Shown: positions 11,658 through 16,175 of the stretch, piece by piece
Position numbering within the stretch: position 1 is the first letter of the stretch
Layout of the letters: each line of letters begins with the position of its first letter
Assembly (NCBI GenBank): GCA_964467345.1
Contig: CAYXPY010000004.1
Location: 17,358-81,357 of the forward strand
Length of the DNA: 64,000 nt
Direction: 5' to 3'
Origin: an uncultured Thermoplasmatales archaeon
GTDB taxonomy: Archaea > Thermoplasmatota > E2 > DHVEG-1
The notes under the pieces: model-generated
The model's database searches: none
Told to the model about the DNA's origin: nothing
The model's input: the letters and a program-made list of their open reading frames with translations, nothing else
Position numbers and translations under genes: made by a program

Positions 11658-14600
11658 ATGACAAAAGAAAAAAAACAAAAGATCACTGCTGCACATAAAC
11701 AGGGCTCAGTCCTTGTCATCGGTGGTGGTATCTCAGGGATTCAATCATCGCTTGACTTAGCGGATGCAGGATTCAAAGTCTATCTTGTCGACCGTGGTCT
11801 TTCCATCGGCGGGACCATGACACAACTAGACAAAACATTTCCGACAAACGATTGTGCCATGTGCATCCTTGCACCAAAACTCGTCTACACAGGACGACAC
11901 GAGAATATAAACATCATCACAAACGCTGAGGTCACCGATGTCGCCGGAGAGGTTGGGAACTTCCAGGTCACCCTTAAGAAACACCCCCGTTACGTCGATC
12001 TCACAAAATGCAACGGATGCGGTGATTGCGTGGAACACTGTCCGGTTTCTATGCGATCTGAATTCGATGAGGGACTTGCGACACATAAAGCAATCTATCA
12101 ACCGTTCCCACAAGCGATTCCAAATGTCTTCGCTATAAGAAAAAACGAAGGTACCTCCCCCTGTAGAATCTCCTGCCCAGCAGGATTGAACGCCCATGGG
12201 TTCGTCGCCTTAGCAGCTCAAGAGAAATTCGCAGAAGCCTTTGAGCTTATCAAAGAAACCATCCCCTTCCCAGGATCATTGGGCCGTATATGCTATCATC
12301 CCTGTGAAACAGATTGCAACAGGAAAGACATCGATGAACCCGTCTCCATTTGTCGCATCAGACGATTCATTGCCGATTACATCTATGACCATCCAGAAGC
12401 TCTTGCCGAGTATAAGAAAATACAAGCAGAAAAACAACAAAACATAGAAATCAACAAGACAAAGAAAGGAAACAACCAAAAAGTCGCAATCATCGGAGCA
12501 GGACCTACTGGAATAACCGCTGCATACGACCTTTCTCGTAAGGGGTATAAACCAGTAGTTTTCGAAGCAGAGAAATTCAGCGGAGGCATGCTGCATTACG
12601 GGGTACCTGACTACCGACTCCCAAAAGAGTATCTCCATAAAGAACTCGATCCTCTCTGCGAACAAGAACAAATCGAACTGAAGAACAACCAGAAGCTCGG
12701 GAGAGATTTCACGCTGGCAGACCTCAAGAAACAAGGGTTCAAAGCCATCCTTGTCGCGATCGGTGCTCATAAGACACGGGCAGCAGGGATTGAATGCTGT
12801 ACTGGAACAGATACCTGCATCTTAGAAGGTGTCGAGTATCTCAAGCAGCTCAATAGGAACATGATCGCAGCGGAATATTTCAAGGGAAAAACCATCTTGG
12901 TTATCGGCGGTGGAAACGTCGCGATGGATTCCGCACGTACCGCACGGCGTCTCGGGGGAAACGTGACTGTCTTGTATCGAAGATCTCTGAAAGAGATGCC
13001 AGCGCACAAAGAGGAGATTCAACAAGCAGAAGAGGAAGGCATCACCTTTAGCTTTTTGACCGCCCCGACGAAACTGCATAAAAACGAGAAACACACCTGT
13101 CTCCAATGCGTGAAAATGCAGCTAGGGGAACCAGATGCATCAGGGAGACGACGACCGATCATTGTGCCTAATTCCGAATATGACGTCCCCTGTGACTATG
13201 TTATCTTTGCAATAGGCCAAGAACTGGATATACAATTGATGGAAGAAAACAACATCGCTCTTTCGCCCTCAGGTTTTATCCAGGTGGACTCTATCACGTT
13301 ACAAACACCCCAAGAGGGGGTTTTTGCCGGCGGTGATGCAGTCTCCGGTCCTGCGTCTGCTGTCGAGGCGATTGCCGCAGGTCATCGTGTGGCAGAATCA
13401 ATCGATCGATTCCTCAACAATGAAGATCTAATAAAAGGAAGAGAAACCACAGAGCCAGTAAAAGCACAGATCCCAAAGGAAACCCTCAGAATCCCACAAG
13501 AGCGGGAACAGCCACCGTTACTGCCCCTTGATGAACGAGTAATGACATTCACTGAAGTCGACCAAGGTTTCACCAAAGAACAGGTTGTCCGTGAGGCACA
13601 ACGGTGCCTGAATTGCGCAGGATGCTGTGATTGCCAACAATGTGTCCTTTACTGTGGACCTCACGCTATTGACCATCAGATGAAGGAAACAACGCAGACT
13701 ATTGATGTCGGAGCTGTTATCGTCTCACCAGGTTTTGCGGAGTACACCCCACCAAAAGCAGATAGTTACGGATATCAAGTCTATCCGAATGTACTGACCA
13801 GCATCGAATTCGAACGGATGCTCTCTGCATCAGGACCATATAAAGGCCATATCAAACGGATCTCTGATGGGAAGCCATTGAAAAAAATCGCATGGCTCCA
13901 ATGCATCGGTTCACGTGACGAAAGCTGCGATCGGAAATACTGCTCCTCGGTGTGTTGCATGTACGCAACCAAGGAAGCAGTCATCGCAAAGGAGCACGAA
14001 CCCGGGGTGGATACACATATCTATTATATGGATATGCGGTCGTTCGGTAAGGATTTTGATAAGTATTTTGAACGAGCGCAAAACGAGTATGGCGTCGTCT
14101 ATAGACGATGCCGTATCGCAAAGATAGAACAGGACCGGAAAACAAAACAGCTCACAATCCGCTCTGTTGATGAGAAAGGCGCCTTACAAAACGAGATATA
14201 CGACATGGTAGTACTTTCCGTAGGGTTACAACCCTGCGCAACCCTTGGCCATCTCAGCAAAGCATTGGAGATTAATTTAAATGAATACGGGTTCGTCGAG
14301 ACAGACACATTCACCCCAGTCTCCACCTCACGTGAAGGCATCTATGCCTCAGGAACGGTCACAGAACCAAAGGACATCCCTGAGAGCGTGACCCAGGCGT
14401 CTGCAGCCGCCGCAGAAGCGGCAAGGACTATCGCAGAGGTGAGAGGAACCGAGGTCGCTGAGAAGACATACCCAGTGGAACGGGATATAAAAACAGAGGT
14501 TCCCCGGATAGGTGTATTCGTCTGCCATTGTGGGATCAATATCGCTGGCATCGTTGATGTGAAAAAAGTTGTTGAAGTCTCAAAGACACTCCCCTACGTC

Positions 14601-16175
14601 GTCTACTCAGATGATACCTTATTTACCTGCTCACAGGATTCACAGGAAAAAATAAAAGAGAAGATAAAGGCTTTAAATCTCAACCGGGTTGTCATCGCTT
14701 CATGCACCCCCCGGACACATGAGCCATTATTCCAAGATACGCTTCGACAGGCTGGGTTAAACCCCCATCTGTTTGAAATGGCAAACCTTCGTGACCAGAA
14801 CTCCTGGGTCCATAAAAGTGATTCTAGCAGTGCCACGGAAAAAGCTATCGATTCGGTGAAAATGGCAGTTGCGAAATCCTCCGATTTATACCCCGTGCGT
14901 CATCTGCAGATCCCGGTCATTTCCAGCGCTCTTGTGATTGGTGGCGGTATCGCAGGGATGACTGCCGCACTCTCCATTGCAGATCAAGGGTACCAGGTCT
15001 ACCTCGTCGAAAGGGAACCAGACCTTGGGGGTCATCTCAAGGAAATCTACCTTGGGGTACAGGGGGAGAAACCACAGGACCTCTTGAAACAGACTATTGA
15101 ACAAGTCACCAGTCATCCTTTGATACAGGTATTCACCCAGACGACCGTCGGGCAGATCTCCGGATACGTCGGGAACTTCTCCACAACAGTGCAGAAGGAT
15201 AAAAAGGAGAAGACACCAACCGTGATTCAACATGGTGTCATCATCGTCGCAACCGGTGGAGTCCCATACGAACCCAAGGAATATCAATACAAGAAACACG
15301 ATGATGTGCTGACCCAGACACAGTTCGAAAAAGACCTCTTTGATGAAAAAAAATATCTCAAGGACCTAAAGGAGGTCGTGATGATCCAATGTGTCGGATC
15401 ACGAAACGAAGACCAGCCGTATTGCAGCAGGGTGTGTTGCTCTGAGGCGTTGAAGAATGCCTTGCGGTTCAAGGAGCAGAATTCCGATGCAACAGTCTAT
15501 GTCCTGTATCGTGATATCAGGACCTATGGATTCAGGGAGGATGTCCTCTACCAAAAGGCCCGAAAGAAAGGGATTCTTTTCATACGATATGATGAAAAAG
15601 ATGAACCAAAAGTAACCATCGATGATGGAAAACTGCTGGTAAGAACAAAGGACCCCATCCTGCAACGAGAACTCCGTTTACACCCGGATAAATTGATATT
15701 AAGCACTGGCGTTATCCCACAGGACAATAAACCACTCGCACAACTGCTCAAAGTCCCCTTAAACGAAGATGGGTTTTATGCCGAAGCGCATGTGAAGCTT
15801 CGCCCGATTGATTTTTCTGCAGACGGTATTTTCCTCTGCGGTCTTGCCCATTCACCTCGGTTCATCGAAGAATCAATCGTACAGGCAAAGGCCACAAGCG
15901 CCAGGGCGGCAACAATCCTTTCAAAAAAATATCTTGAAACAATCGGCAACATCGCAAGGGTAGTTTCGCGGAATTGCGCTGGATGCCAACTGTGTATCGA
16001 GGCATGTCCCTATGATGCGATTAGCTACGACGAAGAAAAGAAAATCGTAATCGTCAATGAAATCCTCTGTCAGGGCTGTGGTGCCTGCTCCGTGGTCTGT
16101 CCAAGTGGCACGTCACAACAGAACACGTTTACGAAACGTCAGATTATCTCTATGATTGATGCATGTTTGGAGTAA
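11658..16175 (+). CDS. 1505-aa HdrA-like flavoprotein: HdrA FAD domain interrupted by a GltD/NfnB-like NAD(P)H module, followed by a second complete HdrA unit
   Basis: aa 1-160 carry '[44 protein letters not shown]' and '[12 protein letters not shown]'. aa ~170-600 carry '[18 protein letters not shown]', '[18 protein letters not shown]', '[17 protein letters not shown]' and '[21 protein letters not shown]' (GltD/NfnB/SudA-like). The HdrA domain then continues through '[19 protein letters not shown]..'. aa ~1050-1505 form a second unit with '[15 protein letters not shown]', '[28 protein letters not shown]' and C-terminal 2x4Fe-4S motifs. Confidence 0.8.
   Translation: [1505 protein letters not shown]

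Follow-up and report, generated by a model that had tools for sequence, protein, structure and literature searches.

Of the four classes of flavin-based electron-bifurcating machines known so far, one is formed by HdrA-based complexes. In the canonical HdrA complex, the high-potential branch runs through the HdrA and HdrC clusters to HdrB. HdrL has been described in Desulfobacterium autotrophicum HRM2 (Strittmatter et al., PMC2702500) and Syntrophobacter fumaroxidans (PMC5947623), and selenocysteine was reported for HdrL1 and HdrL3. The HdrABC/HdrL cluster of S. fumaroxidans (Sfum_0819-0824, comprising hdrABC, an FdhB-like iron-sulfur (FeS) protein, MvhD, and HdrL) is abundant in the sulfate-grown proteome, and the authors suggested that it works by confurcation (Sedano-Nunez et al. 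2018, PMC5947623). HdrA9-11 of the anaerobic methanotrophic archaea ANME-1 have 500 aa of NfnB-like sequence set into the inserted ferredoxin domain (Chadwick et al. 2022, PMC9012536), and the name "type III HdrA" (classes A9, A9-TRX-C, and A10) was introduced in a 2025 Microbiol Spectr survey (PMC12054007). By structure prediction, the survey proposed a ferredoxin site blocked by the GltD domain and clusters re-purposed for NAD(P)H, which was described as a mid-potential donor or acceptor. We analyzed a 64,000-nucleotide window from an uncultured Thermoplasmatales archaeon (assembly GCA_964467345.1, contig CAYXPY010000004.1), in which a gene at positions 11658 to 16175 encodes a 1505-aa protein. 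This protein is almost certainly an HdrL-type fused HdrA that carries a wired NAD(P)H module. A sequence-only reading of the window had left in doubt whether such an architecture was described. It is already published, as HdrL, ANME-1 HdrA9-11, and type III HdrA, and is extremely common; this gene is a Thermoplasmata example.

The features of the gene, in window coordinates and protein residues, are as follows.

11658..16175, plus strand: whole gene, HdrL-type fused HdrA with an NfnB/GltD-like insert; intact ATG-started open reading frame (ORF) of 1505 aa, no internal stops
11658..11987, plus strand: unit 1, first part of the thioredoxin-reductase-like domain binding flavin adenine dinucleotide (FAD) (residues 1–110); residues 18–162 align to 5odc HdrA 146–290
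11988..12143, plus strand: unit 1, first half of the inserted ferredoxin domain (residues 111–162); C118-x2-C121-x2-C124-x3-C128-P, aligned to 5odc C245...C255
12144..13448, plus strand: module core (residues 163–597); FeS ligands C169, C173, C212, C216, and C220; G280-A-G-P-T-G285; G417-G-G-N-V-A422-M-D; Y440-R-R442; GG-D motif at 558–560
13449..13616, plus strand: permuted segment (residues 598–653); NfnB/GltD N-terminal helix and first CxxC (R649-C650-L-N-C653), located after the module C-terminus
13617..13697, plus strand: unit 1, second half of the inserted ferredoxin domain (residues 654–680); C656-x2-C659-x2-C662-x3-C666-G-P, aligned to 5odc C293...C303
13698..14447, plus strand: unit 1, remainder of the FAD domain (residues 681–930); C749...C762-x3-C766-C767 cluster motif; E719/K772, corresponding to HdrA E356/K409
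14496..14912, plus strand: unit 2, HdrA N-terminal (MvhD-like) FeS domain (residues 947–1085); C956, C958, C991, and C1016; residues 947–1125 align to 5odc 2–180
14913..15932, plus strand: unit 2, FAD domain (residues 1086–1425); Rossmann motif G1095-G-G-I-A-G; C1245...C1256-x3-C1260-C1261; E1224 and K1266
15933..16175, plus strand: unit 2, C-terminal 2x[4Fe-4S] ferredoxin domain (residues 1426–1505); Pfam Fer4_7 at 1439–1484; aligns to 5odc 568–648

The same protein, 100% identical and with unchanged neighbours, was found on six contigs of three independent Sequence Read Archive (SRA) assemblies. At least 120 listed homologues of approximately 1500 aa cover 98–100% of it with 50–90% identity. 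The gene is genuine and no artefact of assembly or frameshift; the single ORF of the sequence-only reading is confirmed, and there is no sign of a split into separate hdrA and gltD-like genes. The motifs quoted in that reading were all found at the expected places (residues 18–45, 56–71, 118–129, CRISCPAG at 169–176, 211–220, 275–292, 413–429, 555–575, and 950–964). Its overall layout, an HdrA interrupted by a GltD/NfnB/SudA-type NAD(P)H-FAD-FeS module and then resumed, followed by a second HdrA unit, was borne out by Pfam, by the Protein Data Bank (PDB) search, and by the alignment to 5ODC. Domain scans recognized both components. In Pfam, the matches were Pyr_redox_2 (6.8e-61, best stretch 275–575), Fer4_20 (1.5e-16, residues 167–243), three more FAD/NAD Rossmann domains, and the C-terminal dicluster domain. 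Among PDB sequences, the protein matched HdrA (5odc_A) at 9.8e-189 in four stretches, and the insert part matched NfnL (5jca_L) at 1.8e-73 and GltD (6s6s_G) at 1.5e-52. Residues ~161–667 match Bfu-type NfnA (9bov_A), StnC (8oh5_C), NfnL/NfnB (5jca_L and 4ylf_B), and GltD (6s6s_G), while none of the PDB sequences searched holds HdrA and an NfnB/GltD-like part in one solved chain. The NCBIfam scores lie below the family cut-offs on both sides: 702–973 for HdrA/HdrA2, short of the equivalog level (cut-offs 1100–1400), and 274 and 180 for the GltD families TIGR01318 and TIGR01317 (cut-offs 483 and 448).

Residues were mapped onto Methanothermococcus HdrA in the numbering of 5ODC, and the conservation of Cys residues was counted over 120 homologues. 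Residues 18–162, 655–872, 947–1125, and 1324–1502 align to HdrA 146–290, 292–510, 2–180, and 467–648, respectively. The protein resembles the HdrA of MvhADG-HdrABC (5ODC, 8RVU, and 7BKB) in its thioredoxin-reductase-like FAD domain, the E356/K409 pair, the CxGSR...C-x3-CC cluster, the N-terminal cluster completed by the Cys197 of a partner, and the inserted and C-terminal ferredoxin domains. However, canonical HdrA is a symmetric homodimer of four-domain subunits, whereas here the domains are shared out over two fused units. Neither unit has all four, and they complement each other. Unit 1 has the Rossmann motif G22-G-G-I-S-G27, the N64-D-C66-A-M-C69 pair corresponding to HdrA Cys194/Cys197 (C66 and C69 are Cys in 119 of the 120 homologues), and the inserted ferredoxin domain. 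The first-half motif Cys residues of this domain (C118–C128) are kept in 119/120 homologues, and C656, C659, C662, and C666 in all 120. Unit 1 lacks the HdrA N-terminal FeS domain as well as the ferredoxin domain at the C-terminus according to the 5ODC alignment. Unit 2 has both of these; C956, C958, C991, and C1016 and all eight Cys residues of its C-terminal CxxCxxCxxxCP motifs (1440–1451 and 1471–1482) are found in 120/120 homologues. It lacks the inserted ferredoxin domain, residues 234–328 (95 residues) of the 652-aa HdrA of the operon being replaced by 12 residues (1181–1192), and it also lacks the NDCxxC (Cys194/Cys197) pair. There is no conserved Cys between C1016 and C1245. The sequence-only reading had taken unit 2 as a second complete HdrA with 2x4Fe-4S; the C-terminal clusters stand, but the completeness does not. 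In both units, the CxGSR...C-x3-CC motif is complete in 120/120 homologues (C749/C762/C766/C767 and C1245/C1256/C1260/C1261), and the flavin-site pairs E719/K772 and E1224/K1266 are invariant or nearly so.

In a pair of HdrAs, the cluster in the N-terminal domain of one is completed by Cys197 of the other, and tandem or fused HdrAs are complementary in just this respect (Chadwick et al. 2022, PMC9012536). The 1505-aa protein follows this rule, with the Cys pair in unit 1 and the N-terminal domain in unit 2, and so qualifies as a fused, type II-like HdrA pseudo-heterodimer; the unit order is reversed compared with the ANME HdrA3/4 of the same study. Each chain has a single inserted ferredoxin domain, a single cluster of the N-terminal-domain/Cys197 type, and a single C-terminal ferredoxin domain. 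Therefore, each chain would hold one complete three-way junction, whose ferredoxin-domain arm ends in a covalent NADPH:FAD module. We modeled residues 1–1085 and, as a proxy for a pseudo-dimer, the insert-free 1017-aa tandem paralogue of the same operon (AlphaFold2). The paralogue model had a predicted local distance difference test (pLDDT) score of 84.8 and a predicted template modeling (pTM) score of 0.87, which is consistent with one compact body of two units. The model of residues 1–1085 had a pTM of 0.84, with a pLDDT of approximately 90 in the N-terminal domain of unit 2. Both folds are intact in alignments and models, with the cluster ligands and the FAD-site Lys and Glu conserved. The two pTM values suggest that units 1 and 2 may pair physically. 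Together with the sequence complementarity, the models suggest that the two incomplete units act as an intramolecular, asymmetric counterpart of the HdrA homodimer. Class A9 of the type III HdrAs likewise derives from an HdrA without the N-terminal cluster and the C-terminal ferredoxin, as in unit 1, and A9-TRX-C, judging from its name alone, would have an extra C-terminal FAD domain, as in unit 2.

The 492-aa module occupies residues 163–654 (window positions 12144–13619), between HdrA positions 290 and 292. It splits the two CxxCxxCxxxCP cluster motifs of the inserted ferredoxin domain of unit 1 and leaves the FAD fold proper uninterrupted. The 5ODC alignment hence moves the insertion out of the first FAD domain, where the sequence-only reading had put it. 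In the insert-free tandem paralogue, seven residues stand in its place (a clean 492-aa indel). The module shares with NfnB/NfnL a GltD-like fold that comprises FAD, an NADPH site, and two [4Fe-4S] clusters, and its chain order differs from theirs. In pairwise alignments, the stretch at ~613–653 aligns to the N-termini of NfnL and NfnB; it is collinear with the module in 9bov_A and StnC (8oh5_C), both of which align collinearly as far as residue 667, and forms a second stretch downstream of the module in 9n5u_A. A profile of residues 598–655 was built from 27 family members and run against the PDB sequences. It matched the N-termini of NfnL (5jca_L, 4–45, 1.9e-10), NfnB (4ylf_B, 3–42, 6.2e-10), NfnII (5vj7_A, 3–45), and the GltD proteins 7mfm_I (6–50) and 6s6s_G (17–52), and it matched positions behind the module in 9n5u_A (549–594), 9bov_A (517–567), and StnC (8oh5_C, 521–566). 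By its sequence, the module is circularly permuted relative to NfnB/GltD and has the same order as StnC and Bfu-type NfnA. The claim of a complete module with an N-terminal FeS region is therefore only partly upheld: the module is present, and its N-terminus is not complete, as C650, C653, and the NfnB helix follow the module.

The GltD-like domains of StnC (StnABC, 8OH5) and Bfu-type NfnA (9BOV and 9N5U) are the best sequence matches of the module (E values of 1e-95 to 1e-106), and share with it both the permuted order and the embedding in a host FeS domain. Their host is a NuoG/FdhF-like subunit on a HydBC-type bifurcating core, whereas the host here is HdrA. In contrast, NfnB/NfnL of NfnAB (4YLF and 5JCA) and GltD have a linear topology, and their NfnA or GltB partners are absent from this operon. 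No NfnA-like gene was found in the hdr operon, the only such domain nearby being in the fused HydB/HydG of a hydrogenase operon, and no gltB was found among the ORFs scanned near the operon, a scan that left aside most ORFs of the 64-kb window. NfnB proper and GltD proper were rejected as identities of the module by the permuted topology, the missing partner, and the sub-threshold family scores. In a search against 1.84 billion protein cluster representatives, the permuted cassette was found in at least five host architectures: stand-alone proteins (~510–680 aa), NuoG/Fdh-type proteins (~1100–1250 aa), single HdrA units (~800–970 aa), complete HdrAs (~1115–1135 aa), and fused HdrAs (~1480–1506 aa). 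In these sequences, the cassette appears to behave as a mobile NADPH-entry module that always lies between FeS-cluster motifs.

The permutation bears on how the module is wired to its host. The NfnB-type cluster motif is split, its first CxxC (C650 and C653) lying behind the module and its third and fourth Cys residues (C169 and C173) opening it. C650 and C653 are Cys in 120/120 homologues, and C656 lies only two residues beyond C653. An unbroken run, C650-x2-C653-x2-C656-x2-C659-x2-C662-x3-C666, is thereby formed, in which all six Cys residues are present in every one of the 120 homologues. The first two belong to a module cluster and the last four to the host ferredoxin clusters. Because one contiguous Cys run ligates both, the redox chains of the module and the host should be in direct electron-transfer contact, and the run suggests that the distal cluster of the module and the ferredoxin-domain cluster are neighbours.

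The nucleotide site of the module has a GGGNVAMD...YRR pattern equal to that of the aligned NfnL, NfnB, StnC, and Bfu-NfnA. Among the homologues, G417, G419, A422, and D424 are invariant, and Y440-R-R is at least 90% conserved. StnC and NfnB are NADP(H)-linked; the GltD-like domain of StnC is where NADPH enters, and its FAD is non-bifurcating (PMC10482914). Because the nucleotide Rossmann motif and the YRR match these four proteins, we infer that the nucleotide of the module is NADPH, not NADH. The type III HdrA survey inferred NADH from a GXGXXG motif (PMC12054007); in the present protein, the nucleotide Rossmann reads GXGXXA and, with the YRR, points to NADPH. R320, which corresponds to NfnL R201, is invariant among the homologues. 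However, the same Arg is kept in StnC, and it is no guide to bifurcation by the module flavin because the non-bifurcating StnC retains it. By analogy with GltD and StnC, the module flavin is most likely a plain two-electron/one-electron converter and not a second bifurcation site.

A scan of one genome per GTDB species gave at least 600 matches, of which 80 loci were kept. Most of these match nearly end to end (query ~16–1505), and a few are cut at contig ends. They belong to Desulfobacterota, Syntrophia, Bacillota, Chloroflexota, Acidobacteriota, Planctomycetota, Thermotogae, Nitrospinota, Bacteroidota, Spirochaetes, Gemmatimonadota, Armatimonadota, Atribacteria, Asgard archaea, and others, and include the cultured Desulfotruncus arcticus and Smithella. 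The type III surveys covered only methane- and alkane-metabolizing archaea, with nine sequences, and suggested a recent insertion, whereas the present family extends to hundreds of bacterial and archaeal genomes. Near end-to-end matches occur in genomes of Desulfobacteraceae, Syntrophobacteraceae, and Syntrophales. From the published descriptions and these relatives in the same families, D. autotrophicum HdrL and Sfum_0824 probably have the same architecture. Among the matches listed, the nearest species-representative genome with the gene is the Thermoplasmata metagenome-assembled genome (MAG) LFW-68_2 (77% identity, same layout), which was described as a protein degrader in a paper silent on Hdr. 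Gene context was counted in the 38 loci flanked on either side by 5 kb or more. Within 6 kb of the gene, an MvhD homologue is found in 37 of them, HdrB in 18, an FrhB-like gene in 10, and HydB/HydG-like genes in 8.

In several Desulfobacterota homologues, the codon equivalent to Cys69 is an in-frame TGA ("NDCAM*I"). The bacterial loci with this codon, approximately 80 codons into the gene, are L013, L021, L028, L040, and L073. The TGA implies selenocysteine at the inter-unit cluster ligand in those homologues; it matches the selenocysteine of HdrL1 and HdrL3, and the importance of the residue is thus underlined. Many of the loci with this codon also have an in-frame stop that splits the mvhD homologue. 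A selenoprotein reading of the 1505-aa gene itself was rejected, as position 69 is a Cys codon and selenocysteine is limited to the bacterial relatives. The present protein accordingly shows two of the features of HdrL/type III HdrA, the insert in the ferredoxin domain and an adjoining mvhD, and lacks the optional third, selenocysteine, which several bacterial HdrLs have at the Cys197 equivalent.

The gene lies in a tightly spaced operon that includes hdrB, hdrC, and mvhD, and a hydrogenase operon and a malic enzyme gene diverge from it.

8277-8804, plus strand: hdrC (Pfam/NCBIfam and motifs)
8810-9688, plus strand: hdrB with two CCG domains (Pfam/NCBIfam and motifs)
9688-11646, plus strand: canonical four-domain hdrA, 652 aa (Pfam/NCBIfam); 11-nt gap before the 1505-aa gene
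16182-16631, plus strand: mvhD, 149 aa, FlpD family (PF02662, 4.3e-58); starts 6 nt past the stop of the 1505-aa gene
16648-17769, plus strand: FrhB/FdhB-like FeS protein, 373 aa (Pfam/NCBIfam), with an FrhB/FdhB_C domain and a ferredoxin-like C-terminus
17771-18439, plus strand: double HdrC-like protein, 222 aa, with two HdrC-like dicluster halves; no second HdrB adjoining
18446-21499, plus strand: insert-free tandem HdrA paralogue, 1017 aa (Pfam/NCBIfam); unit order as in the 1505-aa protein
21527-21925, plus strand: OsmC-like thiol peroxidase gene, 27 nt past the tandem hdrA and followed by purA
2146-2622, minus strand: HycI protease of the divergent NiFe hydrogenase operon
within ORF 2635-4131, minus strand: hydrogenase large subunit, 433 aa as called on the source contigs
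3929-4693, minus strand: hydrogenase small subunit of the divergent NiFe hydrogenase operon
4690-6633, minus strand: fused HydB-HydG, 647 aa; HydB with Fer4_22, HydG with NAD_binding_1 and DHODB_Fe-S_bind, NfnA/PyrK-like
6746-8095, minus strand: malic enzyme, in the divergent unit upstream of the hdr operon

The operon holds three HdrA-type flavoproteins and a single HdrB, plus the double HdrC, MvhD, and FrhB-like proteins. The order here, hdrC-hdrB-hdrA-1505-aa gene-mvhD-frhB-like, is a likeness to the HdrL clusters of D. autotrophicum and S. fumaroxidans; as differences, the host is a Thermoplasmata archaeon, and the operon adds the double HdrC and the insert-free tandem HdrA. Residues 16–162 of the 1505-aa protein correspond to residues 9–155 of the tandem paralogue (60% identity), and residues 655–1501 to 163–1012 (50% identity). 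In unit 1 of the paralogue, NDCSMC is present and the inserted ferredoxin domain is complete; the paralogue belongs to a well-populated Thermoplasmatota family. The OsmC-like protein may be a client that forms disulfides for the Hdr system, or a mere neighbour; an OsmC homologue also stands behind the tandem hdrA in the LFW-68_2 locus (L014). The group-3b-like NiFe hydrogenase operon (2146-6633) and the malic enzyme have the same layout in LFW-68_2, and together with the hdr operon they suggest an NADP(H)-centred redox island. Our literature search on Thermoplasmatota Hdr found no paper describing this operon, and no biochemical characterization of any family member was found in the literature.

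The surrounding DNA encodes exosome subunits, L37ae, and RNA polymerase B/A', which are genes of archaeal information processing and mark the host as an archaeon. Three further features of the window were noted.

883-2142, plus strand: 419-aa ORF without a Pfam match
43685-47146, minus strand: surface protein with Ig-like or carboxypeptidase-regulatory domains, 1153 aa
60392-63991, minus strand: C25 (gingipain-type) peptidase with Ig-like domains, 1199 aa

The C25 peptidase agrees with the proteolytic way of life that was proposed for the related MAG LFW-68_2.

The best overall explanation is that, through the 1505-aa protein, NADPH probably feeds a flavin-based Hdr complex, bifurcating or confurcating, with HdrBC and MvhD. 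The module is spliced in at the end of the low-potential arm of HdrA, where free ferredoxin normally docks; in canonical HdrA, the inserted ferredoxin domain is where free ferredoxin or polyferredoxin is reduced, whereas a covalent NADPH module occupies that site here. NADPH (about −320 to −380 mV) would act as a mid-potential donor and reduce the module FAD. Single electrons would then pass from the two clusters of the module to the two of the ferredoxin domain, on to the N-terminal-domain/Cys69 cluster, and finally to the HdrA flavin. There, they would part into two branches, one to a disulfide at HdrB (for CoM-S-S-CoB, about −140 mV), the other to a low-potential carrier by way of MvhD, the FrhB-like protein, or the other HdrA proteins. 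The exergonic reduction of the disulfide at HdrB and the endergonic reduction of the low-potential carrier would both be coupled to NADPH oxidation, or the system would run in reverse as confurcation. The reaction is expected to be reversible, in parallel with that of FlxABCD-HdrABC with NADH. The same reading was proposed for ANME-1 (PMC9012536) and for type III HdrA (PMC12054007). The adjoining hydrogenase, which is of NADP type, and the malic enzyme fit an NADP(H) context. MetFV-HdrABC-MvhD, likewise NADH-dependent, offers a functional analogy only, in that a pyridine nucleotide is the mid-potential donor to an HdrA-based bifurcating complex with MvhD. A like analogy is provided by FlxABCD-HdrABC, in which the pyridine nucleotide donor is NADH and FlxD is present. 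Neither system has its nucleotide site in a GltD-like module in the ferredoxin domain; it lies on separate subunits or elsewhere.

Several points weigh against this explanation. Direction, stoichiometry, the disulfide that is reduced, and the identity of the low-potential partner are inferred throughout, and the contact between module and host clusters is argued from the Cys run. The survey of type III HdrA argues for NADH (PMC12054007), although the GXGXXG here lies in the FAD Rossmann. If the ferredoxin site is occluded, as the same survey proposed, the ferredoxin-reducing site of the complex would be left unaccounted for. Moreover, the module sits on the low-potential exit arm of canonical HdrA and not on the MvhD entry side; therefore, NADP+ could be the acceptor rather than NADPH the donor. 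The directional mechanism with NADPH as the donor is held only tentatively and falls slightly short of an even chance. The opposite role for the same protein, in which the low-potential-type arm ends in NADP+ as acceptor and confurcation is physiological, is less probable, at about one chance in four. It agrees with the placement of the module at the ferredoxin-reducing exit position, with the description of type III HdrA as using NAD(P)H as a donor or an acceptor, and with the confurcation suggested for S. fumaroxidans. However, the operon has no Mvh-type hydrogenase (mvhD only), and the neighbouring 3b-like hydrogenase has its own NADP-type subunit. The sequence sets no direction, and since bifurcating flavin enzymes are all reversible, the physiological direction is at issue here and not a different machine.

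A further rival has two bifurcating flavins in series. The NfnB-like FAD would bifurcate with an NfnA/HydG-like FNR-[2Fe-2S] partner, giving an Nfn-Hdr hybrid with NADPH, NAD+, and disulfide/ferredoxin sites. Chadwick et al. raised the possibility of two bifurcation sites (PMC9012536), R320 is invariant, HydB/HydG-like (NfnA-like) genes occur near the homologue in 8/38 loci, and a fused HydB-HydG is encoded 5 kb upstream here. However, the NfnA-like domain in this window is part of a divergent NiFe hydrogenase operon that has large and small subunits and a protease of its own, and most of the 38 related loci have no NfnA-like gene. The closest solved relatives of the module are StnC and Bfu-NfnA; the StnC FAD is non-bifurcating despite the same Arg, and in Csac NfnABC, bifurcation was proposed at the NfnBC flavobicluster, with the NfnA FAD only oxidizing NADPH. 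We consider this arrangement improbable. Equally speculative is a super-complex of the operon proteins with up to five HdrA-type flavins, in which the module feeds the low-potential arm, at least two bifurcations are in series, and the permuted NfnB-like flavin possibly bifurcates with the neighbouring HydG/NfnA-like domain. If true, a group-3b hydrogenase, NADPH, and an unspecified disulfide would be connected in an archaeon that is not a methanogen. A mis-assembly or read-through joining hdrA, gltD-like, and hdrA genes has a negligible probability and was rejected. The ORF is identical in the three run assemblies, at least 120 homologues are collinear, there are at least 600 genomic matches, most of the 80 loci kept matching nearly end to end across many phyla, the two ferredoxin-domain halves make sense only together, and no point was found in its favour.

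The hard-wiring of NAD(P)H to a bifurcating HdrA flavin was already proposed for sulfate reducers, syntrophs, and ANME-1, and the points added here leave the classification of the 1505-aa protein unchanged. They show a family far wider than the nine archaeal type III sequences, extending to many bacterial phyla, Thermoplasmata, and Asgard archaea, and a complementarity between Cys197 and the N-terminal domain in a unit order opposite to that of ANME HdrA3/4. The StnC-like circular permutation and the Cys run shared with the host ferredoxin domain provide a sequence-level argument for direct wiring, and the nucleotide motif points to NADPH over NADH. A covalently wired NAD(P)H module would tie the pyridine-nucleotide pool directly to disulfide and low-potential chemistry.

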